DNA from: Gemmatimonadaceae bacterium
GTDB taxonomy: Bacteria; Gemmatimonadota; Gemmatimonadetes; Gemmatimonadales; Gemmatimonadaceae
Direction of reading: 5' to 3'
Length of the DNA: 64,000 nucleotides
NCBI GenBank assembly: GCA_045803545.1
Contig: JBJMOW010000005.1
Span: 544,001 to 608,000, forward strand
Each line of letters begins with the position of its first letter. The stretch's first letter is position 1. The notes under the pieces were generated by a model. That model did not search any database and was not told the origin of the DNA. It was given only the letters and a program-made list of their open reading frames with translations. This document shows, in pieces, positions 42,892 through 54,877 of the stretch. The translations under genes were made by a program, and so were the position numbers.

Positions 42892-42965
42892 CGGGACGTA
42901 GCGCAGCCCGGTAGCGCACCTGAATGGGGTTCAGGGGGTCGCGGGTTCAAATCCCGCCGTCCCGA
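42892..42965 (+). tRNA. tRNA-Pro(GGG), integration target; CCA not encoded
   Basis: CGGGACGTAGCGCAGCCCGGTAGCGCA, anticodon arm CCTGA-ATGGGGT-TCAGG, T-loop GGTTCAAATCC. Confidence 0.97.
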
Positions 42966-42967
42966 TT
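42923..42967 (+). repeat. att site (tRNA-proximal), 45-bp direct repeat
   Basis: AATGGGGTTCAGGGGGTCGCGGGTTCAAATCCCGCCGTCCCGATT, identical to 54340-54384. Confidence 0.95.
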
Positions 42968-42995
42968 TTGTAAGTGATTGACTGCGAGTTAGATA

Positions 42996-43032
42996 GAAGG
43001 CGGGAGCCATAATCATTTAAGGCTCCCGTTTC
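42996..43032 (+). terminator. Element-borne hairpin/terminator downstream of tRNA-Pro
   Basis: GGCGGGAGCC...GGCTCCCGTT stem followed by T-rich sequence. Confidence 0.6.
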
Positions 43033-43039
43033 TGCGTTT

Positions 43040-43059
43040 TGGTGCGATAATGGTGCGAT
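43040..43059 (+). repeat. Putative integrase arm-type sites (tRNA-proximal pair)
   Basis: TGGTGCGAT followed by AATGGTGCGAT; the same motif is paired at 54191-54213. Confidence 0.7.
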
Positions 43060-43133
43060 TCTTTTTTTTTCTTGGCACGCACCGAATCTGGCTAAATGAA
43101 CGTGCGCGGGTTCCTCTTACCGATCCGAACGCT

Positions 43134-43736
43134 TCACCCCTCGGCTCGAATCGCCTCGGCGCTGAGAGTCAACAGAATCACCCAATTGACAAGAAGCGTG
43201 GCTGTGAGAATCACGATGAAATATTGGGGCGTCTCCGGTACGAAAAGCAAAACAACCGCGCCGACGATATATCCTAGCTGAAGGAAGAGCACAGATATAA
43301 AAGAGAAATTATTGCCACCACCCTCCTGATCTTTCGAGGCTAGGAATGTCCATGGGCCAGTCGACACTCCATATGCCCAAAGCAATACTGGAAAGATCGG
43401 CGCGTTTCGGGGATGCTTGAGAAAGAATCCAGTTATGAACACGCACCAAATCAACATGATTGCGTTTATGTAAAGCGTGCTTGCACCGGATAGAATCCGG
43501 GCTGCCCACGACCTTCCGCGCTGGACGGCGACAACTGCCGGACCAGAAAGAAGGAGAGACGGAACGAGTAGCCAACCGACGACCCAGACGGATGCAAAAA
43601 GACCCAGCAGTCCGTAGCCAAGCGCCCACCAGTCTCCCTTGATCGCTAACCAGACTCCCGCGATCAGGCCGCCAAACATGTTCACCGTAGCAATCAGCCA
43701 GCTGCACGCGGTTGCGAACCTCAGCAACGCATTCAT
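43134..43736 (-). CDS. Hypothetical polytopic membrane protein (island cargo)
   Basis: 200 aa, almost entirely hydrophobic helices; GGAGA RBS. Confidence 0.75.
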   Translation of the reverse strand: MNALLRFATACSWLIATVNMFGGLIAGVWLAIKGDWWALGYGLLGLFASVWVVGWLLVPSLLLSGPAVVAVQRGRSWAARILSGASTLYINAIMLIWCVFITGFFLKHPRNAPIFPVLLWAYGVSTGPWTFLASKDQEGGGNNFSFISVLFLQLGYIVGAVVLLFVPETPQYFIVILTATLLVNWVILLTLSAEAIRAEG

Positions 43737-43773
43737 TCAGTCTCCGGTTGTCCGTGCTGAGGACGTCCAGACT

Positions 43774-46383
43774 TTAGTTGTGTAGGAGCCCACCCATCCA
43801 CTGCCAAAGGCGCCCCCAACCGGATCTTGAGGCAACTCGACGCGATCGCGTGGGTAACCTCACGAAAGACACTTCACCGGTGGGGTAAATCAACGCGATT
43901 CTTCCAGTGAGCGAATCTTCCAGTGCGAACTGGACGTCGCCTCTTCGGAGACCTGTTTGCGCGAGTACAGGCGTCCACTCCTCCGCTGGTCGAATTGAGT
44001 TCGGCGAAATCAGCAAGACCCGACCAGCGGAGGTAACCACTAAATCGCTCGATTTAAGTACGCCGCTTGAGTCAACTCTAACGACTGCTGCCGGCTGCCC
44101 AGGCTTCCATCGGACCAGCGTGAACGGCAAGTCATCGCGGTTCCAGCATTTTCGCTCATCGCGAGGACAATACCGCACCATCGCCCAAACCTCTCCGTCC
44201 GAAATCACGTGACGCCCGAGCCAAAGCCTATTCGTCGCGCTATCGGGAAGCGGCGGAGCAATCTCTTGCTCTCCCTGAACTGCATCAATCACGAAGAAAT
44301 TCGCAAATGAGTCGATGGTTTTTGGTTCGTCAGGCATAACGTCTAGGAGGGCGGTCGAATCAGTAAGGCGGGCTAAGGTCGCCGACGACGCCCCGCGCGG
44401 ACTTGTCACTCCAATGCGGCTCCATTTGCGGGAAGCTGCATCATAGAGAGCGCCGAACACCCTGCAGGGCGGCAAAGCGCGCTGCTGCGTCGCAGACGTA
44501 CCCAACCGAGCCCAGATATCGCAATTGCTTCCGACCGCCCACCGAACAAAGAAACGTCCGGGAATTAGCGGCACTGCGTCTACATCTACTAGAGAATCGG
44601 CGGCGGTTGGAAACACGTTTGGGGGAACTGTCACAGTGTCCCACTTTTCTCGCGCCCGTGTTACAAATTGCCTCTCGCCCAAATAGGCGACTTTGCCAAC
44701 CCTGAGGTCGCCATGCACCTTCCACCAAGGAAGAGACGGCGGCCAGCTACTCGCCTCCGTCTCCACCCCAAAGTCAGTTAAAGTCGCCTTCCGCGCAGCG
44801 AATGTTGTATCTCTGTTCGAACTGCTCGCGCTATCGTTGACGAGATACTCAAGTTGCACCGCATCGTCTGCCGTGAAAGACGCGTCACTGATGTGCACAA
44901 AATTGGTTGGAATTGAATTCCAAAAGGTCTTAGATGTGGAGCTGTCGGCGAGATCCACTAGGGAAAGCCCAAACCATTGCGTCTTGGTCCAGCACGCTCC
45001 GTCGCCGGAAGGCCAATCAGACTTAGGGATACTGCAAACGACTTTACCGGCAACAAATCTGACTGTGTCGCCGTCCAGCTTACCGTAGAGCGAGTCGGCG
45101 AACAGTGCGTTCGCTTGTGTCGGTGGTCCCGGAAGTTTGTCTCGGACGAAATAGCCTTGAATTGTTTCCGGACCGGCATCCCGCCACTCCACCTCACCGG
45201 AGACCGTAACTCCGTCCCCACCAGCGAGAAATCCGGCTGGTCTGCTGCCTCCAAGCTGTGGGCCGCTCAATAGCAACCTCGCGTTAGCACCGAGGAGTTG
45301 TCGAACACGAGCCGCCGTGAAGGGAACACGCGTGACCTCCCCTGATCGGTGAATTTCGAATTCGCCGGTGAACAGATTCCTTGAAGGCGCAGAGTCCACT
45401 CTGACACGAACGTTGGGCTTTGTGTAATCGACCGTCAGCGGAAAGCTGTTGGGGATAGGCCCGCCGAATCGCCCCCATGGCTCACTCCAACTCGCGCTGT
45501 CTCCGACTCGTCCAATCAGCGAATCACGCGCAGACAAAAGATAGAACGTGAGTTTCTTCTCATCGTTGGCAGAGACCTCGTAGGAGACGCTGTAAACGCC
45601 GGGCTCTACCATTTCGGCGAGTCCGCGAACACTGCTCTGATTCGCTGGCGCCCCAACGTAGCGATTCGAGAGAAAGTCGCGTATGTGGACTGAACTAACC
45701 GCAAAGTTGAGATTCTGTCCGGACGTTAAGCCGGCTGTAGATATTCCAACTACTTTGCCCGCCTCGTCAATCACGGGTCCGCCCGAGCTGCCTGGGGACA
45801 GGGGCGCGGTTATCTGGATTACACGAACTCCGTTGATGTCTCTCAGCGAGCTGACGATCCCTTCCGAGAACGTATAAGCCAGTCCCTCAGGGTGTCCGAC
45901 CGCAAAGATTCGCGTTCCCTGGACTAGCCTGTCCTTTGTGGGGAACGAAAGCGGCACCCCTTTATATCGGACATGCAGCAAGGCAAGGTCATGGCTTTCA
46001 TCCGTACGGACGATGGCTACCGAGTCTACGAATGCGCCGTCCTGCAGCTCGACTCGAAGGCTTGTGCTGTTCTCAACCACATGGAAATTCGTGAGCACCA
46101 AACTGTCGGCTACAAAAAAGCCGCTGCCCAAGCCGCTGCCTTGGCTTCCCTTTTCGTGAATGATTACAACGCTTCGCGACGTCCTATCAGCAAGGGTAGC
46201 AGGATTTGGGTTAGTGCCCGCTCGCACAAGAAGCCAAACCACAATGACCCCGGCAGTGACGCTGAGGACAACAGTCTTCCGACTGCCGATCCAGTCGAGC
46301 AAGCGAACCAGCGGAGGTGGTTTCCGCTTTCGAGCGTAGGAAGGTATTGGTGGGGGCGTTGTGCCTTGGGCGTCACCGATCAT
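43774..46383 (-). CDS. Membrane-anchored trypsin-like (S1C/HtrA-type) serine protease with long unknown C-terminal region
   Basis: GSGFFV, TNFHVV (His), DLALL (Asp), SPGSSGGP (Ser), QNLNFAV; N-terminal TM; no recognisable PDZ. Confidence 0.85.
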   Translation of the reverse strand: MIGDAQGTTPPPIPSYARKRKPPPLVRLLDWIGSRKTVVLSVTAGVIVVWLLVRAGTNPNPATLADRTSRSVVIIHEKGSQGSGLGSGFFVADSLVLTNFHVVENSTSLRVELQDGAFVDSVAIVRTDESHDLALLHVRYKGVPLSFPTKDRLVQGTRIFAVGHPEGLAYTFSEGIVSSLRDINGVRVIQITAPLSPGSSGGPVIDEAGKVVGISTAGLTSGQNLNFAVSSVHIRDFLSNRYVGAPANQSSVRGLAEMVEPGVYSVSYEVSANDEKKLTFYLLSARDSLIGRVGDSASWSEPWGRFGGPIPNSFPLTVDYTKPNVRVRVDSAPSRNLFTGEFEIHRSGEVTRVPFTAARVRQLLGANARLLLSGPQLGGSRPAGFLAGGDGVTVSGEVEWRDAGPETIQGYFVRDKLPGPPTQANALFADSLYGKLDGDTVRFVAGKVVCSIPKSDWPSGDGACWTKTQWFGLSLVDLADSSTSKTFWNSIPTNFVHISDASFTADDAVQLEYLVNDSASSSNRDTTFAARKATLTDFGVETEASSWPPSLPWWKVHGDLRVGKVAYLGERQFVTRAREKWDTVTVPPNVFPTAADSLVDVDAVPLIPGRFFVRWAVGSNCDIWARLGTSATQQRALPPCRVFGALYDAASRKWSRIGVTSPRGASSATLARLTDSTALLDVMPDEPKTIDSFANFFVIDAVQGEQEIAPPLPDSATNRLWLGRHVISDGEVWAMVRYCPRDERKCWNRDDLPFTLVRWKPGQPAAVVRVDSSGVLKSSDLVVTSAGRVLLISPNSIRPAEEWTPVLAQTGLRRGDVQFALEDSLTGRIALIYPTGEVSFVRLPTRSRRVASRSGWGRLWQWMGGLLHN

Positions 46384-47189
46384 TTGCTACTTGATCCGAT
46401 CACCGAAATTGCGACGCACACTAAGACTACGAACACGAGTAATGCAGCACGAATGCCTGATATTTTGCCATGGGTGACCTTGTAAGACTCTCCCCGGTCA
46501 TAGCTTGTAACGCCTTTCTTTGTGAGTTCCTGGTATTGGTGAAGGACTGTAAAGAGGGAAACCAGTGGTATGCCTAAGCCCATGCCTTTGATCCAAACGT
46601 TGGTGGATCTGCGAAGGCTCTGCGAAAAGTCGAGGGAATCGCCCTCTGTGGTTGCAATTGCAATATTCAACAAGGCCTTACCTATGGTCCGCCCGCCCAA
46701 AGCAAATGAAATGGGCTCTACCAAGAAGTGGTGAATCACCACCACCCAGAAGCTGGTGACGAAGGTGTTTTCGCTCGAGAAAAATCCCGGATTTACGAAC
46801 GCGGAAACGATGCCGGCCGCAAACGCGGTCAAGTAAAAATCCAGAATTCTTGCTAGCCAGCGAGGCCAAGGATGTGGCGAATCGTCGAACTTTTCTGGAG
46901 ATACCTTCGGATTCGATACGCTTTCCGCGCTGCCGGGCTCTGACAGAGATTGGACTTTCTCCGTCGGGTTTGGTCTACCTTCGGATAAGTCTAGATCGCC
47001 CAAGCGAATCCAATCTGGCAGTCCTTCCGACCAACAAAGCGTATCGAGCTCGACCTCGCCGGCGCTGAGTCGCGCTTTCAATTGTTCGAGCGACCACGGA
47101 CCGCGCCGGCCGCCATTCTCAACGGTGTACCAAAGCGTCGGGAAATGTGTCTGGGTCGGGGTTCCGGACGGCTTTACGGAGTCGTTCAC
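46380..47189 (-). CDS. GYF_2 (DUF4339) + RDD domain membrane protein
   Basis: WY...GPWSLEQL...TLCWSEGLPDW (GYF_2); PWPRWLARILD...GRTIGKALL (RDD); GTG start. Confidence 0.82.
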   Translation of the reverse strand: MNDSVKPSGTPTQTHFPTLWYTVENGGRRGPWSLEQLKARLSAGEVELDTLCWSEGLPDWIRLGDLDLSEGRPNPTEKVQSLSEPGSAESVSNPKVSPEKFDDSPHPWPRWLARILDFYLTAFAAGIVSAFVNPGFFSSENTFVTSFWVVVIHHFLVEPISFALGGRTIGKALLNIAIATTEGDSLDFSQSLRRSTNVWIKGMGLGIPLVSLFTVLHQYQELTKKGVTSYDRGESYKVTHGKISGIRAALLVFVVLVCVAISVIGSSSK

Positions 47190-47247
47190 GAAAGGTCCTC
47201 ACGAAGGACTCTAGAAAACGCGTCGCGTGTACACATGCACGAATCCC

Positions 47248-47685
47248 CTATGGTTTGATCGCTGGTTTACTAATTGGCGCCTTTTCAGTGGCTGTGTTGG
47301 CTGCGACGTTGGGCGGACTGACCGTTGCAAGGAAAGCGAAAATTGCAAACGCAGAGATGCCCAAGACAAAGGCCCACTTGCTTATGCTGCCTGACCGCTT
47401 TCCACGGCCAACATGCCACGGACGCTCTGGAGTCAGGTAGCTCTTTACTATCGCGGATATGGTGTCAAGCGCAGCGATAAGCGCGACTATCAGGAGGGCC
47501 CACGACAGGGCCAAAGGCACATATTCGCAGGAGCTGGCGACACGGAATTTGTCGAGAAATGCAGCGCTTAAGGCCAAAACCCCCGAAGACAACGTGATTA
47601 ACTGCTTCATCAACTCAAGGGCCGTTTCACCCGCCTCTTTGAGTTTTGGCGCAAGCGTGTCCGGCTCGGGGGCCGTCAAATCCAT
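47248..47685 (-). CDS. Hypothetical 3-TM membrane protein
   Basis: KQLITLSSGVLALS and two further hydrophobic helices; start overlaps the methyltransferase stop. Confidence 0.7.
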   Translation of the reverse strand: MDLTAPEPDTLAPKLKEAGETALELMKQLITLSSGVLALSAAFLDKFRVASSCEYVPLALSWALLIVALIAALDTISAIVKSYLTPERPWHVGRGKRSGSISKWAFVLGISAFAIFAFLATVSPPNVAANTATEKAPISKPAIKP

Positions 47686-48365
47686 GTCCCCCCGCCCTTC
47701 GAGTAAAGAAATACTTGCTCCTGTCCATTTCTACCAAGCGACCTGATTCTCTGTAGCCCGTATCTGTGCATCATCTCCTGCGTTTCCTCGCCAGTGAACT
47801 CTCGGTAGAAAGAGTGCGTAGCGCGGTCCGGCCAGCGGTAGTAGCCGTCACTCACTCGATGCTTGGCATCGCTATCGGTTATCTGATTGTACCGCGACAT
47901 GTAAAGAAGGTATGAGTCTTTGGTCATCTTCTTGGTGATGTGCCTTAGAACAAGCTCTCGCTCCGATGGTACTGGCATTACTTGGAGGACGTAAGTGAGC
48001 AGCACGGCACCGAACCGACGATTGCTGTTGATGAAATCACCAGGCCAGACCATCGGAAGGAAGTTGTGATACTTGAGCGCGATCTGGAGAAATGCCGAAC
48101 AAAAGGTCCGGCTGAAACACTCTTCGAATTCCACTGCGCAGACCGTAAAACCCTCTTCTAAGAGTGGAAGCGTGTGGCGTAGCGAACCTACGCCGAAGTC
48201 GAGAACCGTATCGATGTTCCGTTGTTTGAGGAACGGAATAAAGTCTTTGTTGAGTGACCCGTGAGGTGGCAGCGAAGCCGAGACAGAGGTAGTTACATCA
48301 ATCTTGATGTCCTTACCGGTACCACTCTTCAACGAGTAGATAGGGCTTGCCCAAATCTTGGCCAT
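47676..48365 (-). CDS. Class I SAM-dependent methyltransferase, substrate unknown
   Basis: Motif I VLDFGVGSLRH, acidic AVEF, LLTYVLQVMP. Confidence 0.75.
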   Translation of the reverse strand: MAKIWASPIYSLKSGTGKDIKIDVTTSVSASLPPHGSLNKDFIPFLKQRNIDTVLDFGVGSLRHTLPLLEEGFTVCAVEFEECFSRTFCSAFLQIALKYHNFLPMVWPGDFINSNRRFGAVLLTYVLQVMPVPSERELVLRHITKKMTKDSYLLYMSRYNQITDSDAKHRVSDGYYRWPDRATHSFYREFTGEETQEMMHRYGLQRIRSLGRNGQEQVFLYSKGGGTWI

Positions 48366-49529
48366 TCAAGTTGCGACTTTGGATAAGGCTTTCTGAAATC
48401 CGATCCATTCGGCGGCATAACGCGCGGCAACTGCAGCATTACTGATAAGGTATTCCTCGTTTAGTCCAGTCTTGCTGCTAAACCGCAACGAACCGTAGCG
48501 GACAATCGGAATCTGGTAGTTGTTGACGAAACGTTTATCGGGTGAGCCGTCCTTGTTCGCTTTCTTCCATGTTTGCCCAATTACTTCGGCATCGCGAGGC
48601 ACGCCTTCTTCCTCGATAAAAGAGACTGGAGAAAACGCTATTGTCACCTCTTTGGCGTCGATTAGCGCGAACGCGTGTGACGAGATCACATAGAGGACAA
48701 AACCGGGATAGATAAACAGATCGCCGCCATTTGCATTTCTCAGATGCGGCACGTCCCAAGGAGTTCGAATCAAATCGGATGACCCGAAACCAACTGTGAC
48801 TGGTTGTCGGTTAATTGACTGCAACGCTGTAGTTCGCTCACGAAACCGATCAGTTGCAACACTAGACAGCGTGTCCCAAACTCGTTGCGATTGTGCCAAT
48901 GTCGCCGTGGCATCGCAAACGCGGCCGAAGCCGTCCTTGAGTGAATCAGGCAAATCGAACTCGGTCGAAAGCTTTGAGAGGCGCTCCTGTTCTTCTAGTT
49001 CGGCAACTTTGGCCGCCGCCTCCTCGGACCGATGCTCAATATCCGCAAAACGCTTCTTAAAAAATCGTCGTAATAGCCAGCCCTCTTTCCACCTTCGATA
49101 ACGATCGGAAGCTCGATCCGCGTCGTTGCGCGATGCCGCCAGCTCCGGCAGAAGCGATGATCTTTCAGCCTGCGCCTTGGTTAGCAATTCCTTCAGCGGC
49201 TGCAATCCGTCGGTAGTTAGCACAGCTGTACTACCGCTGCGGATCTCGCCAGCGAGCTGAGTCGCAACCGTTGACGTTGGCGGCACTTCGCCCAGTGGAG
49301 CCGGCGTAGGGCTACGGGTCGCTGGAAAGAGGTTCGCTTCTGGCGAAGGTCGAATCGATTGACGGAAGGAGATTCCGGTGCCGGGCACGCGGGCTGTTAA
49401 TGCCGGTCCCTGAGATCCCAGGTATATCCGAGCAGGGCCAACACCAACCGATGTACTGATGCCTCGCGGCGAAAAATTGATTCGCACACCGGGCAAGGGA
49501 CTAAAACTTTTTCGGAATCGCCAGCCCAT
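48366..49529 (-). CDS. DUF4236 domain protein
   Basis: N-terminal MGWRFRKSFSPLPGVRINFS.RGISTSVG...PGTGISF; coiled coil; C-terminal NKDGSPDKRF..NYQIP; GAGGGG RBS. Confidence 0.85.
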   Translation of the reverse strand: MGWRFRKSFSPLPGVRINFSPRGISTSVGVGPARIYLGSQGPALTARVPGTGISFRQSIRPSPEANLFPATRSPTPAPLGEVPPTSTVATQLAGEIRSGSTAVLTTDGLQPLKELLTKAQAERSSLLPELAASRNDADRASDRYRRWKEGWLLRRFFKKRFADIEHRSEEAAAKVAELEEQERLSKLSTEFDLPDSLKDGFGRVCDATATLAQSQRVWDTLSSVATDRFRERTTALQSINRQPVTVGFGSSDLIRTPWDVPHLRNANGGDLFIYPGFVLYVISSHAFALIDAKEVTIAFSPVSFIEEEGVPRDAEVIGQTWKKANKDGSPDKRFVNNYQIPIVRYGSLRFSSKTGLNEEYLISNAAVAARYAAEWIGFQKALSKVAT

Positions 49530-49585
49530 ATCCCCTCAGTTTCGGTATCGTCCCACGAAAATGGATGTTTTGGGCCGTTCGGGAT

Positions 49586-49627
49586 ATGTCGATTTTCTAT
49601 CATCGCGATGTCGATTTTCTATCATCG
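49586..49627 (+). repeat. Tandem 20-bp direct repeat in the divergent intergenic region
   Basis: ATGTCGATTTTCTATCATCG at 49586-49605 and 49608-49627. Confidence 0.9.
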
Positions 49628-49679
49628 AACGGGACGAATCGAGGCTAGCGTCCTATTTGTTCGCCGCCCACTTTTGGGA

Positions 49680-50429
49680 ATGGGGAATGATCCGGAGTCA
49701 TTTGTCTGGCGGTGGATTGGCCGCGCATGGACACTCAAGGAAATCCTCTCATCGGCCGCAGTAGCCGGCATTCTTACGACCGCGTGGGCCTACTTCACGC
49801 GGCTTCCACCAGTCGAGATTGTGGTTACAGGCGCTGCGGGATTCTTAGTGATCTTCGTCGGGGCTGTTGAGATCAGACGGTTCCGGGCGGTTTCGTTCAG
49901 CCCATCTCGCAAGGTGATACCTGGCTCGCCCGCCTTGGGTACTTACAACGAACAATACATCATAGACGACCTGCGGCGCACCAAGGAAGAAAACCGAAAG
50001 ACGCAGGAGCATCTCGAAGCCATTGAGGCCGAACGGTCCGCTCTCCAAGTGAAGTACGACGCCAAGGAGCAGTCGGAGAAGCAAGCAATCTCGCGCTGGC
50101 AGAGTTTAAATAAGCTGTTTGACGAAGTCTTCGCGATGCAGAAACAAGCCACCGGGAACTACATGAGGGCTTATCAGGCGATCGTCGACATCGAGGCTGC
50201 GCTATTAGATAAGAGTCCTAGCAGAGGATTGCTTGATGTCAGAGCCGCAGCGAGCATACCTGAGACGCAAAGAATAGCCGATGCTCAGGCCGTCATAACC
50301 CGGTACCGCAGCGAGAGCCTTGGAACCGTCGAATCCAACCCTGCTCCGCGGGGCGGCTTTCTTAGCCGTGCTTTGGGGCCGCAAGCTCCACCGGGCACTG
50401 CGCCAGAAAAGGGCGACGAACAAAATTAG
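49680..50429 (+). CDS. Hypothetical protein, two TM helices + coiled coil
   Basis: Hydrophobic N-terminus then a charged heptad region; only plus-strand gene of the island; start uncertain. Confidence 0.65.
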   Translation: MGNDPESFVWRWIGRAWTLKEILSSAAVAGILTTAWAYFTRLPPVEIVVTGAAGFLVIFVGAVEIRRFRAVSFSPSRKVIPGSPALGTYNEQYIIDDLRRTKEENRKTQEHLEAIEAERSALQVKYDAKEQSEKQAISRWQSLNKLFDEVFAMQKQATGNYMRAYQAIVDIEAALLDKSPSRGLLDVRAAASIPETQRIADAQAVITRYRSESLGTVESNPAPRGGFLSRALGPQAPPGTAPEKGDEQN

Positions 50430-51604
50430 GCCGCGTCGTCTTCCACCAATCTCAAGGTTGGGAACAACAACCGACTCAGCTTATCCGTTGCACTTGCTTG
50501 CATAGTGGGTGCTACGTGCGAATAGGTGTCCAGCGTCTGCCGTACACTGCTGTGCCCTAGGCGCTCTGCCACGATCTTTGGATTTTCGCCGACTCCAAGA
50601 AGCAGTGTCGCAGTCGTGTGACGGAGGTCATAAATCCGAACCTTGGGGAGATTGGCGCGCTTAAGCAGAGCGCGAAATGACCGACGTAGATTCTTTGGTT
50701 CGATAGGTGTACCGTTCGCCGTGCAGAACGCCAGATTGCGCATTGCTGGATCGAGCGGGCACATCCGCAACGCGGCCTCCTGCGTGACCCGATGATCAGC
50801 GAGAGCGGCGATTACAGTTTCATCCAGTGGGACATTGCGTCGGCTCCCGACCGTCTTCGTTTTGCCGAATACCGGTTGCTTTCCCACCCACACAACGGAG
50901 CGCTGGACTGTTACAACTCCGTCTGCCAAGTCAGACCACCGAAGCGCGAGCGCTTCACTCGGCCGAAGCCCTGTTACCACAAGGAGCGCCCACAGCGCGT
51001 AATTGGGGTCACCGCGCGCTACAGTCAAAAAGACCTTGGCCTGTTCCGGTGTGAGAGCCGTCATTTCTTGGCGTTCCGTTCGCGGGAGCTGCACTCCTGA
51101 TGCGGGATTTTTTACCAACAAGTCATCGTTCACAGCTTCCCGGAGGGCGCGATTCAGGAGAGCGTAGAGTACACGAATGCTCCGTGGGGAAAGGCGGCGT
51201 TTTTCTTCGGGTCCGCGAAGATCGAGAAGCCAACGAACAACATCGTCGCGAGTCAGCTCCGAAACTAGGATTGAGCCAATCGCATTTTTCGCGACGTGAT
51301 TGTTGAGTAGTGCGCGATAGTCGACGAGGGTACGGCGCCGTACTGCCTCCCCTGCCTCACGCTTGCGAAGCCACGCGTCCACCATTTCCCAGAGTGTGAT
51401 CCTCCTGCGTTTCGTGGCAACGCCGTTTGCGATGAGCTGGAGCGCCGCATTCAGGGCTTTTTGAGCGTCACGACGCGAACCGCGAATGACCTTCGATGGA
51501 TAGACACGGCGCCCGCATTGGCGACTGGCAATTGGGTCGAGCCAGCGAATGCGAAATCGCTCCCTGCCCAGCGGCGTAATACTGCCTTCACCCTTTGATC
51601 GCAT
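50426..51604 (-). CDS. int: Tyrosine recombinase/integrase
   Basis: N-terminal arm-binding GEGSI...FRIRW; TGLRPSEALALRW, KTKT, YDLRH, RLGHS, DTYSH. Confidence 0.95.
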   Translation of the reverse strand: MRSKGEGSITPLGRERFRIRWLDPIASRQCGRRVYPSKVIRGSRRDAQKALNAALQLIANGVATKRRRITLWEMVDAWLRKREAGEAVRRRTLVDYRALLNNHVAKNAIGSILVSELTRDDVVRWLLDLRGPEEKRRLSPRSIRVLYALLNRALREAVNDDLLVKNPASGVQLPRTERQEMTALTPEQAKVFLTVARGDPNYALWALLVVTGLRPSEALALRWSDLADGVVTVQRSVVWVGKQPVFGKTKTVGSRRNVPLDETVIAALADHRVTQEAALRMCPLDPAMRNLAFCTANGTPIEPKNLRRSFRALLKRANLPKVRIYDLRHTTATLLLGVGENPKIVAERLGHSSVRQTLDTYSHVAPTMQASATDKLSRLLFPTLRLVEDDAA

Positions 51605-51615
51605 CGTCCCCCGCT

Positions 51616-52908
51616 CTACGCAGCACGTAGTAATCGAGCGTTGTGTTGTTCGCGCTTGCATCGGCGTATTTCGGCAACGAAAAGCCAGAAGTGAACGCCG
51701 TCCGCTCCTGACTCCTCAGCGGCTTCCAACACGGCGAGCGGGCCATGCTGCTCGCCTTTCACGAGATTCCATTGATCGACCGTTAGCTCAGCGACCAACT
51801 CACCGCCGACACGTTCAGCGGCTAGTTCTTCATCGGTCGCCTCTTTCACGCTGTACCGCGCTTTCAGTCCCTTACTCCAAGTCAGAGATCGCGTCCCTTT
51901 GCTTGCCCGCTCCCATTCACGCCATAGTTCCAGATCCGCACAGTCACCACTCGCTAGGAAATCGCGAAGGACCTGGAACGGTGTGCGGCCTTGCCGGCGC
52001 GTTCCTTTCAAATCGTGACGAGTCATTTCCATCCCGATTCGTCTGTTAGTGTCATCCGTCATTGCCATCTTCTGCACGTACTCACCTACGCCGCGCCGGG
52101 TTACGCGCTCAATTGGACATAAGCCAATCAGCGGCGCCCGATAGCCGAAGGATTCAATGGCCGACAACCAGCGAGCGAAGAGTCGCTCGTTAAGCGTTTT
52201 CACTTCGGGGGCCGACAAACGGCGATCGCAGAAAAGAAGAACGTGTAAATGCGGGTGCGCGCCGGCGCTGCCGAAAGTTGTTTCGCTCGCGCGGATGGTC
52301 CCAACGATCGAGTACTCGCGCTTGTCAGCCTCGTACCCGCGACCACCAATGACTTTCCGGAACGCGTTGGCAACCGCCTCCAAGAGTCGCGCCAGCTCGT
52401 CACCAAAATCGTGCGGTAGCGTGAACGTCTGAAAGACTATGTCACCGCCGGCCGCTATGTGGCCGCTGGCCGCGACATCTATCTCGTTCGCGCGCTGCTG
52501 CCGAATCTTCGCTGCGCAGACAGGGCACGCGTGGACGGAACCGCAACATTGCACATTGCCGAAATGGGCGCGTCGCTCGGGGCTCAGGTATACGCCTACC
52601 TTGTCGTTTCGAATCCTCCGGCGGCCGCACATTCGGACGCGCGATAGGTTCGATTCTTCCCACAGCACAGAGCGTAGCTGATAGCGATCCCGGCGCCGCC
52701 CCGATTCTCCGGGCAGGGAAACACTTTTCGTAATGTTATCAAGGCGGGCAAAACCACCGACCCGCTGCGCGGGTTTCTCTACGCTCGCTGCGCTCGCTGT
52801 CGCGCTTCGCGCGGAACTACCGCCGGCCGCAGCGCGCGAGCGCGGTCGGTAGTGCGGGCGAAGGTTGGTCGCGCCATTTGTGGCGGCTTCGAGTAGATCA
52901 GCCGACAC
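51616..52908 (-). CDS. rep: HUH rolling-circle replication initiator (Rep_1/pIJ101-like)
   Basis: CGSVHACPVC Zn-like motif, motif I TFTLPH, motif II HPHLHVLL, motif III EYVQK, LTWSKGLK; start uncertain (GTG 52908 overlaps the xis stop; could be further downstream). Confidence 0.88.
   Translation of the reverse strand: MSADLLEAATNGATNLRPHYRPRSRAAAGGSSARSATASAASVEKPAQRVGGFARLDNITKSVSLPGESGRRRDRYQLRSVLWEESNLSRVRMCGRRRIRNDKVGVYLSPERRAHFGNVQCCGSVHACPVCAAKIRQQRANEIDVAASGHIAAGGDIVFQTFTLPHDFGDELARLLEAVANAFRKVIGGRGYEADKREYSIVGTIRASETTFGSAGAHPHLHVLLFCDRRLSAPEVKTLNERLFARWLSAIESFGYRAPLIGLCPIERVTRRGVGEYVQKMAMTDDTNRRIGMEMTRHDLKGTRRQGRTPFQVLRDFLASGDCADLELWREWERASKGTRSLTWSKGLKARYSVKEATDEELAAERVGGELVAELTVDQWNLVKGEQHGPLAVLEAAEESGADGVHFWLFVAEIRRCKREQHNARLLRAA
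52730..52850 (-). other. Putative double-strand origin (dso) with CTTG^ATA nick site
   Basis: Minus strand ...GCGAGCGCAGCGAGCG...ACCCGC-GCA-GCGGGT...GCCCGCCTTGATAAC; CTTGATA at 52737-52743. Confidence 0.65.
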
Positions 52909-53092
52909 GACGCCATCCACCAGGCAGAGCCTTACCGCCTCGCTCAACCCACTCAGCAAGAGCGCTTGGATTGACTCGAAGTTGGCGGCCGAGTCGAACG
53001 ACCGGGAGAATGTCAGAACGAGCCAGCTCGTAGGCGTGCTCTGGAGAAATGTTAAGAGCTTTGGCGACCTCGGGGATGCGAAGGAGCTGCAT
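52898..53092 (-). CDS. xis: Excisionase-like HTH (MerR/HTH_17) protein
   Basis: MQLLRIPEVAKALNISPEHAYELAR...LPVVRLGRQLRV..SALAEWV; GGAGG RBS. Confidence 0.88.
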   Translation of the reverse strand: MQLLRIPEVAKALNISPEHAYELARSDILPVVRLGRQLRVNPSALAEWVERGGKALPGGWRRVG

Positions 53093-53199
53093 GACTGCCT
53101 CCAAAGGAGAGTGATTGCCTCACACGACGTGTGCGGGTGCAATTCTCCCTCAGGGGCAGACCGCGAAAATCTGAACTCAAGCATTTCTTGCTTCAGTTA

Positions 53200-54201
53200 C
53201 TACAAATTGTTTTCGCCGCCCTGATTACCAGGCCGGAGGGGTAGAGCGAGCCGATGCGCCGCTTGCGCTATCCCTTTGTGTACGGCTCTGTAGGCGGCTT
53301 GCCGGCGTAGGTCGCTTTGTTCCGCGTAGGCACTCCGCTCGCTCGCTTTGCTGGCAGAGCGGAGAATTTCGGTCGGCCTTTTAGGAATTTCGGTCGGTCT
53401 TTCAGACCGTTTGAGTTTTCGCGGATTATTGAGGCCGTATTCCTTCGCAATTTTGGCGTGAGTCCACCGCTGACACTGCCAACGCACAAGCCATTCGAAA
53501 TGCCGAAACAAATCCGAGTCCTTGTCGGATTTGCGGATTTTCGGCGTTTTTGTCCATCCCGCTTCCTCGGCCTGACTTCTTACACGTCTCACATATCCGC
53601 CCAAGTGCGAATTGAATTCGGCCGAAACTCTCGCAACGAACGCTTTTTCGGTCTCGTCTGTAATTCTCCAGCCGTTATCCGAAAACGAAAACGGCATTTC
53701 GGCCCATTTCGATTTCTTAACCGAAATCGGCGCGCTGAATTGAAGTCGCCGGCCCGGAACTACCACAATCGTTCCGGTCCATTCAAAGAGGGTTCGCAAA
53801 ACCATATTTCGAACCCATTCGGTATTTAGGCTGTGCCGTTTAATCCAGTCTTCGAGCGCGGCAATTAGGACCGCGAACTCATTTCGGTCTGTGTTTCCGA
53901 GCTTCCGAAGCGTTTCGGCGTCCAGCGAGAGCAGCTCGTCCTGATCCATTACCGCTCTAATGCGTTCGTAATTCGGCCGAACCGACTCTGCGAGATCTAC
54001 CAATACCTCTTGCGCGAATTCCTCGATCTTTTCGATGAACGCCGTTCGAGCGTAATGCCCTGCTTTGTCGTGTTCGGTTGGATGGGAGTACTCACCGAAA
54101 CCAATTCGCGTCGGGTCGCCGACAGGAAGTAAATCCGATTCCGACTTGTCCTTTTCTTCAGCGCGCTTCTTTTTGGGCAGAACACGTAGAAATGGTGCCA
54201 T
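53200..54201 (-). CDS. Hypothetical protein with possible C-terminal HTH (island regulator?)
   Basis: HFEWLVRWQ...THAKIAKEYG...AVHKGI; start uncertain. Confidence 0.65.
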   Translation of the reverse strand: MAPFLRVLPKKKRAEEKDKSESDLLPVGDPTRIGFGEYSHPTEHDKAGHYARTAFIEKIEEFAQEVLVDLAESVRPNYERIRAVMDQDELLSLDAETLRKLGNTDRNEFAVLIAALEDWIKRHSLNTEWVRNMVLRTLFEWTGTIVVVPGRRLQFSAPISVKKSKWAEMPFSFSDNGWRITDETEKAFVARVSAEFNSHLGGYVRRVRSQAEEAGWTKTPKIRKSDKDSDLFRHFEWLVRWQCQRWTHAKIAKEYGLNNPRKLKRSERPTEIPKRPTEILRSASKASERSAYAEQSDLRRQAAYRAVHKGIAQAAHRLALPLRPGNQGGENNL

Positions 54202-54213
54202 TAATGGTGCGAT
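54191..54213 (+). repeat. Putative integrase arm-type sites (distal pair)
   Basis: AATGGTGCCAT (54191-54201) and AATGGTGCGAT (54203-54213). Confidence 0.7.
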
Positions 54214-54339
54214 CTCCGCCAAACTGTGTTGAACTCGGAACAACTCGCGAGCAGAAGGAATGGCGGTAACTCAAGCAATTGCTCGACTTAGGTCAAGTGG
54301 GGAAAACTCACATGACCTCAGCAAAAGTCGCGAAATTCA

Positions 54340-54384
54340 AATGGGGTTCAGGGGGTCGCGGGTTCAAATCCCGCCGTCCCGATT
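54340..54384 (+). repeat. att site (distal), displaced 3' half of tRNA-Pro
   Basis: Identical to 42923-42967. Confidence 0.95.
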
Positions 54385-54508: not shown

Positions 54509-54877
54509 TTGCCCGCATCATACGAGATCGACCCAAAGCGAAAGCTAGTAATCACCCGCGTTTGGGACCCGGCGACAGAAGACGACGTTCTTGCGCACGG
54601 CGCGCGCTTGCGCGCTGACCCACACTTCGACCCAACTTACAAACAGCTCGCGGACATGAGTGGCGTGACTCAGATTAGAGTGAGCACAGGCACAGTCGAG
54701 CAACTGTCACGCGGCCAGCTCTTCGCGCCTGGTTCACAGAGAGCCTTCGTCGCTTCGCACGACGCAGTATTCGGCATGCTGCGTAAATACGAGCTTCACG
54801 CGGAAAGCGTAGGCCAGACAGTCCGAGTTTTTCGTGAGCGGAAGTCGGCTGAAGACTGGCTCGGTCTCTCAGACTAG
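54509..54877 (+). CDS. Hypothetical protein, STAS/SpoIIAA-like
   Basis: YEIDP.RKLV...QLADMS...AFVA...FGMLRKY...VRVF...AEDWL pattern; TTG start. Confidence 0.75.
   Translation: MPASYEIDPKRKLVITRVWDPATEDDVLAHGARLRADPHFDPTYKQLADMSGVTQIRVSTGTVEQLSRGQLFAPGSQRAFVASHDAVFGMLRKYELHAESVGQTVRVFRERKSAEDWLGLSD

Follow-up and report, generated by a model that had tools for sequence, protein, structure and literature searches.

Organization of the island

The window analysed here, a stretch of 64,000 nucleotides from a Gemmatimonadaceae bacterium (contig JBJMOW010000005.1, positions 544,001 to 608,000), carries behind an intact tRNA-Pro(GGG) gene an island which the sequence-only reading had taken for a minimal integrative rolling-circle element with an internal integrase. 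Its backbone consists of a tyrosine integrase, an excisionase-like protein (xis), an HUH initiator of rolling-circle replication (RCR), designated Rep, and a conserved gene, orf347. Comparison of sequences indicates that the island is a mobile member of a family of elements of about 10-12 kb found in one Gemmatimonadaceae genus, that islands of this family and small phages with a double-jelly-roll (DJR) capsid recombine repeatedly, swapping the Rep gene together with the origin, and that the island may hitch-hike in the particles of these phages. The ends and backbone are as follows.

42892..42965, plus strand: tRNA-Pro(GGG), intact target gene (ARAGORN and Rfam)
42923..42967, plus strand: attL core, 45 bp, corresponding to the 3′ part of tRNA-Pro (repeat comparison)
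43039..43059, plus strand: tandem 10-bp repeats, left pair, probable arm-type sites of the integrase with a presumed function (motif scan)
50426..51604, minus strand: tyrosine integrase, 392 aa (PF00589; phrog_1, 1e-74; catalytic motifs present)
51616..52908, minus strand: HUH rolling-circle initiator Rep of the Rep_1/pC194 family, 430 aa (PF01446 just above cut-off)
52737..52743, minus strand: CTTGATA nick motif, probable double-strand origin, inside the 5′ part of rep (sequence comparison)
52898..53092, minus strand: excisionase-like HTH_17 protein (xis), 64 aa (HTH_17, 4e-13; TIGR01764 above cut-off)
53200..54201, minus strand: orf347, conserved backbone gene, 333 aa from the likely ATG at 54201 (no named family)
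54192..54213, plus strand: right pair of arm-type repeats, overlapping the start codon of orf347 (kept in 4/4 right ends)
54214..54339, no strand: conserved non-coding stretch from the right arm repeats to attR (alignment of four elements)
54340..54384, plus strand: attR core, 45 bp (repeat comparison)

The attL and attR cores are 100% identical over 45 bp and lie 11,417 bp apart, this spacing being the size of the island; the attL core is also identical in a sister island (L025) and in a remnant from another genome (G017). The length of the repeats had been given correctly at the outset, while their beginning, placed then at the anticodon loop, reads from the sequence as the final anticodon-stem base, immediately before the loop. 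The backbone genes are co-oriented as had been described, all on the minus strand and read from attR in the order orf347, xis, rep and integrase, and the distance from the integrase start to attR, estimated as about 2.7 kb, is 2,736 bp. The reported lack of a relaxase, type IV secretion system (T4SS), FtsK, capsid or Zot gene was borne out among the 11 open reading frames (ORFs) of the island, and Pfam, PHROGs and profile searches matched no capsid, ATPase or lysis genes among them. The GC content is 57% in the backbone, 55% in the cargo and 60% in the genome. An ORF of 122 aa without a Pfam match lies between attR and the neighboring kinase gene (54509-54877); the empty site of a congener (see below) could not accommodate it, and it is therefore an additional gene lying beyond the att-bounded island.

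Earlier ORF calls for Rep (522 aa) and integrase (411 aa) begin too early, the 522-aa start being rejected because it overruns xis in another frame; the putative GTG start of Rep overlaps the xis stop. For orf347 the full ORF spans 53200-54243. The Rep motifs HPHLH and Y277xxK280 are invariant in 28/28 aligned relatives. The window integrase contains GLRPSE, YDLRH, LGH and TYSH, of which LGH is found in 11 of the 12 relatives and the other three in all 12. Nonsynonymous (dN) and synonymous (dS) divergences calculated against the sister island (dN/dS of 0.26/1.02 for orf347, 0.10/0.69 for xis, 0.22/1.87 for the Rep core and 0.11/1.23 for the integrase) keep dN well below dS, which indicates purifying selection on all four genes. 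Together with the catalytic motifs present in Rep and integrase, this agrees with the first impression that the parts are intact.

None of Pfam, PHROGs, NCBIfam and PADLOC assigned orf347 to a family above cut-off, and the PDB gave no match. The nearest Atlas neighbors of orf347 at 0.95-0.96 are unnamed clusters, and those named by Pfam (0.78-0.81) fall below the bar; a role in regulating the xis-rep-int operon is therefore guesswork.

Conserved ends and the nick motif

The tandem repeats are located about 70 bp inside attL and about 125 bp inside attR. All four matches to the motif in the 64-kb window are at the island ends, as against 0.41 expected in the window for this pattern, chosen post hoc. 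The left pair recurs in the sister island, its second copy differing there by one base, and in the remnant from G017, and is absent from the empty site, and alignment of four elements over arm, spacer and att core gives a mean column identity of 86%. The repeats are thus probably arm-type sites of the integrase, and, since they are conserved at both ends, the internal position of the integrase gene is not anomalous. The overlap of the right pair with the start of orf347 suggests that binding of Int could repress the operon, and the conserved stretch between this pair and attR (54214..54339) probably comprises a promoter or Xis sites. A promoter scan returned 0 sites.

CTTGATA is the nick motif of Rep_1 initiators (PMC10378824), and the origin of pC194 is given in PMC5037232. 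The longer sequence GCCTTGATAA is identical in both islands, i.e., in the window and L025, and in two phage contigs, L026 and L027; the 3.7-Mb host genome contains two copies of it. Between the window and the sister island the region upstream of the nick motif has a low dS of 0.43 vs 1.87 in the Rep core, as would be the case for a cis element.

The island family in the genus

Searching for the same xis-rep-int backbone at tRNA genes of other genomes, suggested along with the initial description, was productive: a sister island of 10,826 bp with the same att (L025) occupies tRNA-Pro in G487, a Gemmatimonadaceae metagenome-assembled genome (MAG) of the same genus, being the second unit of a tandem array behind this gene. 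It is 74% identical to the window island in DNA over the 4-kb backbone, with xis proteins 81%, integrases 83% and orf347 products 62-63% identical, and no cargo is common to the two; to other relatives the window integrase is 88-90% identical. In the congener G014 (L022) the start of susC, tRNA-Pro and the same kinase gene follow each other with nothing inserted. This empty site and the different cargo of the sister support the mobile-element reading made from the sequence alone. Rep is present in 2/109 genus genomes. The orf347 end occurs in two more of them, G503, where it is cut by the contig end, and G017, where the copy of the gene is broken, and orf347 was found in 0/300 other family genomes, a sample including just eight of the genus. 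No close integrase was found in G503, G017, G465, G504 and G021, all of them fragmented MAGs; further contigs of the family combining integrase and Rep are presumed to exist. The suggestion that the family might be undescribed held up, since no described family was matched in literature and database searches, and the family is apparently new.

Several observations concern the same target gene. The G017 remnant (2.4 kb; L016:4441-6855, G017:C157) retains both att cores and both arm pairs besides the broken orf347, lacks xis, rep and int, and contains an inserted alcohol dehydrogenase gene; it could be a non-autonomous derivative moved in trans. Outside the window, at G000:C4:1001929-1005074, two 3′ fragments of tRNA-Pro (46 and 54 bp, 3.1 kb apart) flank an HTH-like ORF and adjoin ORFs that by eye resemble type I restriction-modification genes, and this looks like a remnant of another island family with the same att. 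The 16.3-kb contig G000:C1, 68-79% identical to and largely collinear with C4:572-603 kb, has its own tRNA-Pro(GGG) in opposite orientation without an island and probably derives from a relative, having been mis-binned. Across the order, tRNA-Pro(GGG) acts as a hot spot of insertion: unrelated islands of 4.5-13.9 kb occur there, some of them in tandem (L017-L021, L090). In G038 (L024:12401-12882) and G009 (L023:10294-10532), 5′ halves of tRNA-Pro measuring 26-43 bp are repeated at a distance of about 180 bp, upstream of either the tRNA or its 3′ part. At another target, tRNA-Ile, a 5-kb element with 63-bp repeats, a distant Rep_1 protein (35%) and a different integrase (L037:6551-11663, G357) represents a parallel minimal Rep_1 island in a genome of the same class.

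DJR phages with a related Rep

The closest relatives of the window Rep, 55-68% identical, are encoded on capsid-bearing contigs. One of these, L026, has 12,248 bp with a terminal repeat of 141 bp and is therefore circular, with a genome of 12,107 bp; its Rep is 60% identical to that of the window. Together with L027 (12,326 bases), which has largely the same genes plus a holin, it encodes Rep, a lytic transglycosylase, an M15 peptidase, a P-loop ATPase, for which the nearest Atlas clusters of the L026 protein are mostly viral, and a protein of 347 aa. A single-sequence fold of the latter reached a pLDDT of 35 only, and the fold obtained from the alignment of its 42 relatives (clusters), at pLDDT 92, was used instead. 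This model matches the P3 protein of PRD1 (E 2e-14, TM 0.67) as well as the STIV and PM2 capsids, and thus predicts that the protein is a DJR capsid protein, though no sequence match to it was found in PHROGs, Pfam, the PDB or 50,697 GenBank phages. Identity to the island Rep is 28-34% for named phage Reps and 30-36% for the 25 plasmid Reps listed, and none of 162 plasmid records attains 60%. Scans of IMG/VR with Rep, the Rep alignment, the capsid, the capsid alignment and the arm motif revealed neither island nor phage, and the integrase gave distant matches alone (24-37% over long stretches, and one 46-residue match of 65%). The DJR phages of 12-14 kb make up an apparently undescribed group.

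Such phages bring up the possibility that the island is a capsid-less derivative of a temperate DJR prophage, its int-xis-orf347-rep module for lysogeny and replication having shed the structural genes and been filled with cargo, in which case some unseen contigs with integrase and Rep could be complete temperate phages. Prophages of integrase type and exchange of lysogeny modules are known for DJR viruses of Vibrio (PMC12715192), viruses of the STIV group often encode tyrosine integrases and RCR initiators (PMC5894146), the island Reps nest in the phage clade (see below), and a contig with both integrase and capsid may exist, given that six of the 21 integrase cluster members are unlisted and eight capsid clusters unexpanded. 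Nevertheless, neither the circular L026 nor the 12,326 bases of L027 contain a homologue of integrase, xis or orf347, no length is common to the 21 integrase and 45 capsid entries, and the genomes searched (109 of the genus, 401 of the order) yielded no DJR prophage. The two fully seen islands are free of structural or lysis remnants, with a backbone under purifying selection, and between the att sites of the window island there is no DJR capsid gene with a packaging ATPase. We consider this origin unlikely.

Exchange of Rep between islands and phages

Other relatives are known as proteins only and were linked by equal lengths of their source contigs. Among 36 Rep contigs, 10 coincide in length with a capsid contig (of 45) and nine with an integrase contig (of 21), while integrase and capsid contigs have no length in common; the one checkable match (L025, 548,802 bp) is correct. 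Six of the 21 members of the main integrase cluster are unlisted in this comparison, and eight multi-member capsid clusters are unexpanded. A tree of the Rep core (residues 122-300) was built from 24 rows comprising 11 island, 11 phage and two outgroup sequences, with island labels assigned directly in two cases, by length in six, by cluster in one and by xis overlap in two, and phage labels directly in two, by length in eight and by cluster in one; it leaves out eight unlabelled Reps and three further island-type rows, and a first tree had been seen before the test. Phage Reps are basal in this tree and island Reps are nested inside the phage clade, the island label requiring five changes, at least three of them forced by well-supported branches. 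Monophyly of island Reps is rejected by the approximately unbiased (AU) test with p-AU of 9e-7.

Divergence along the islands is uneven. Seven contig-linked islands have integrases 90-98% identical and Rep cores 65-89% identical; for the islands on contigs of 10,589 and 9,816 these values are 98% and 75%, and for those of 12,269 and 10,589 the Rep C-termini are 100% identical, with cores at 77%. In two Reps, P0012 and P0005, residues 1-60 resemble those of islands (68-85% vs 32-50%). Past approximately residue 60, i.e., the site of the nick motif, P0012 is phage-like in nearly every window of comparison, and P0005 makes the same switch less cleanly, its core grouping with the Rep of phage L027. 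The nick motif is thus the apparent switch point of island/phage mosaics. The window Rep falls in the main clade of islands, with 82% identity to the nearest island and 72% to the nearest phage, and therefore is not itself a recent mosaic. Since swapping of Rep needs both circles in one cell, a shared host cell is implied, and these mosaics are the sole evidence of a DJR phage infecting this genus.

It might be objected that the repeated exchange is an artefact of chimeric assemblies, of wrong length pairing or of one old transfer followed by rate variation, given that most island and phage labels are indirect, several inner branches of the tree are weak, and P0005 and P0012 are known as protein sequences alone. 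But the length matches agree with an independent marker, as P0005 and P0012, with their island-type N-terminus, match integrase contigs; the single match that could be checked was correct, the AU p value is 9e-7, and P0012 is on record from two sources and three contigs. An artefact of this kind appears very improbable.

Possible spread as a satellite of DJR phages

As candidates for the helper postulated in the sequence-only reading, the DJR phages of 12-14 kb have the Rep type and nick motif in common with it, and we assign a probability of roughly 45% to the reading that the island is an RS1-like satellite of these small tailless phages. Such a cycle would begin with orf347 or a phage signal turning on the xis-rep-int operon, whereupon Int and Xis would excise the 11.4-kb circle and Rep would nick CTTGATA, initiating rolling-circle replication. 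In a cell infected by a DJR phage, the circles of island and phage would replicate from the same nick motif, and nicking and re-joining at the common origin, or homologous recombination in rep, would bring phage Rep cores into the island; for this transfer the sequences described above provide indirect support. The phage-like replicon and near-phage size might then let the whole circle enter unmodified capsids, the weakest step of the scheme, suggested by analogy with RS1, which uses the replication module and particles of CTX. Finally, Int would re-insert the circle at tRNA-Pro. The reading is favored because phage-type cores have been retained repeatedly, sizes are near those of the phages (11,417 and 10,826 bp with unrelated cargo vs 12.1-13.9 kb) and no conjugative helper was found: searches for VirB4-like and VirD4 proteins gave no match in the genome carrying the island (93% complete), VirB4-like matches over cut-off occur in 4/109 genus genomes, and a single FtsK-family match, an 862-aa ORF, lies outside the island. 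A broader proposal, that there is a class of genome-sized integrative satellites of tailless DJR phages, devoid of capsid genes, near the helper in size and refreshed in Rep by crossover at the nick site so that Rep or its origin would serve as packaging licence, is tentative and somewhat doubtful.

Several results weigh against packaging by DJR phages. L026 is filed in a MAG of Blastocatellia (Acidobacteria), where it may be mis-binned. The DJR capsid gene was detected in none of 109 genus and 401 order genomes, among which there is no positive control, and the 109 genus genomes have no spacer-like perfect match to L026 or L027. Only two of 11 island and two of 11 phage labels in the Rep tree were seen directly, and the best phage match of island Rep cores is just 72-80%, the actual donors therefore being unsampled. 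Outside rep and the nick region the DNA of the islands has nothing in common with L026 and L027, the best remaining match having an E of 0.06; a packaging signal was thus not found, and none of the island genes resembles a factor for packaging or for redirecting capsids. The match in size is weak too, as unrelated islands at this tRNA elsewhere in the order measure 7.3-13.9 kb and the G017 remnant is of 2.4 kb. Four soil read runs with a depth of about 2-5 gave no attP or attB joint, though no listed piece spans the att core.

Size, in view of the similar islands at tRNA-Pro, was rejected as proof of packaging, and weak imperfect spacer-like matches (E about 1e-4 to 1e-3) were taken as chance. 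The capsid alignment found no match in the genome carrying the island, and of the 15 L026 proteins the transglycosylase alone matches that genome, on another contig than the island. Tetranucleotide composition gave no assignment of the phages to a host, the correlation with the island's host being 0.29 and 0.45 for the phages and 0.21 for the island itself, with host chunks at 0.54-0.85.

The same data might be accounted for by an integrative rolling-circle plasmid or an island resembling integrative and mobilizable elements (IMEs), excising and replicating by its own means and unpackaged by DJR phages, for which phage Rep cores are a by-product of the common nick site in chance co-infection; its spread would be provided by a conjugative element using Rep as relaxase, by vesicles or by a tailed phage. 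For ICEBs1, PF01446 initiators can serve as relaxases, and in streptococcal IMEs an RCR initiator accompanies a tyrosine integrase (PMC5357655). Formation of co-integrates between nick sites of near identity has been recorded with Mob relaxases of RCR plasmids (PMC5714925), elements with distant Rep_1 proteins and recombinases occur in the class with no phage link (L037, L041), and there is the mentioned lack of a packaging signal common to island and phage. This explanation meets with the absence of a coupling protein from the island and the rarity of conjugative ATPase matches in the genus, while neutral swapping leaves unexplained both the retention of at least three independent phage-type cores and the identity of plasmid Reps (30-36%) as compared to phage Reps (55-68%). 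We regard it as a serious contender, yet rather doubtful.

Cargo genes

Seven ORFs between the left arm repeats and the integrase constitute the cargo.

43134..43736, minus strand: hydrophobic protein, 200 aa, no family (ORF and Pfam scan)
43774..46383, minus strand: 869-aa protein with N-terminal trypsin-like protease domain (PF13365, 2e-30)
46380..47189, minus strand: membrane protein with GYF_2 and RDD (Pfam scan)
47248..47685, minus strand: hydrophobic protein, 145 aa, no family (ORF and Pfam scan)
47676..48365, minus strand: SAM methyltransferase-like protein (PF13489, 1e-5, below Pfam cut-off)
48366..49529, minus strand: DUF4236 protein (phrog_17982 along the full length)
49608..50429, plus strand: protein of 273 aa, gene convergent with that of the integrase, without a family above cut-off (ORF scan)

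Assignment of these genes to defence was not accepted, as PADLOC gave generic protease matches alone, for one of 16 proteins.

Significance and comparison with known systems

Bacterial phage satellites in the literature examined parasitise tailed or filamentous phages, and the open-access literature searched describes neither a satellite of a bacterial DJR virus nor this island family. Should the satellite reading be true, satellites would extend to the tailless DJR lineage in bacteria, and a soil lineage with seemingly rare conjugative ATPases would have a route of gene transfer. The way in which circular-genome DJR phages select DNA for packaging is poorly understood; the question would then become testable, because satellite and helper have only rep and the nick region in common. 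Even if the satellite reading fails, there remain an apparently undescribed group of DJR phages that recombination links to an island of Gemmatimonadaceae, and repeated exchange of Rep between virus and genomic island.

The candidate helper resembles DJR viruses of the STIV/PRD1 fold (PMC5894146) in its capsid, P-loop ATPase, lysis genes, small circular genome and RCR initiator, and differs in a capsid lacking sequence matches and an initiator of pC194 type. The word “Gemmatimonad” is absent from the main text of that paper, whose supplementary DJR contigs could include relatives.

Among mobile elements, the definition of IMEs by Coluzzi (an integrase and a relaxase or RCR initiator between direct repeats, with no T4SS) applies to the island. 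Streptococcal IMEs likewise have direct repeats and combine a tyrosine integrase with an RCR initiator in the absence of a T4SS, but 83 of 118 encode the coupling protein TcpA, which the island lacks, and their Reps are of other families (PMC5357655); the passages of this source that deal with them mention no link to capsid-bearing genomes, and no conjugative helper was found in the island host. Integrative and conjugative elements of actinomycetes (AICEs) such as pSAM2, to which the sequence-only reading had pointed, are similar in having a tRNA as target, the genes int and xis, and an RCR Rep whose nick site is of pC194 type (PMC3218068). This comparison proves the weaker one: the island has no FtsK/SpoIIIE-type Tra (TraB), its initiator is Rep_1 rather than RepSA, RepAM or Prim-Pol, as judged from PF01446 matches alone with no RepSA-specific profile used, and its host is not an actinomycete.

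Minimalist chromosomal islands inducible by phages (PICMIs; PMC10803314) and virion-encapsidated integrative mobile elements (VEIMEs; PMC9618062) are also small islands with int, an xis-like gene and replication genes but no capsid genes, and are packaged in unmodified helper capsids, whereas the present island is known from sequence alone. PICMIs need a primase (DUF3987/DUF5906) and the fis locus (PMC10803314), where the island has Rep_1 and tRNA-Pro. Both groups travel as concatemers, inside tailed phages whose size is several times their own (PMC10803314, PMC9618062); the island monomer approximates the size of its candidate helper and its Rep is of the helper's own type. Tailless helpers were raised as a possibility in the VEIME paper (PMC9618062). 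The pSSVx/pSSVi and SRCE satellites of archaeal spindle-shaped viruses are plasmid-like replicons spread by a non-tailed virus, carrying homologues of virus structural or ATPase proteins and a plasmid Rep (bioRxiv 10.1101/2025.02.15.638363), while in the island the Rep is of virus type and structural genes are absent.

RS1, and TLC, satellites of the filamentous phage CTX in Vibrio cholerae, lack morphogenesis genes and integrate site-specifically, as the island does; RS1 shares rstR, rstA and rstB with CTX and uses its particles, so that the replication module is homologous to that of the helper (in our case, the candidate helper), and hybrid helper/satellite DNA arises (PMC3545932). RS1 is of about 3 kb, integrates at dif by the host XerCD and depends on an inovirus (PMC3545932), whereas the window island has its own integrase and xis, the tRNA-Pro target, about 7 kb of variable cargo and an icosahedral DJR candidate helper. 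Judged by this analogy, the island would work most like RS1, though it is not RS1 proper.

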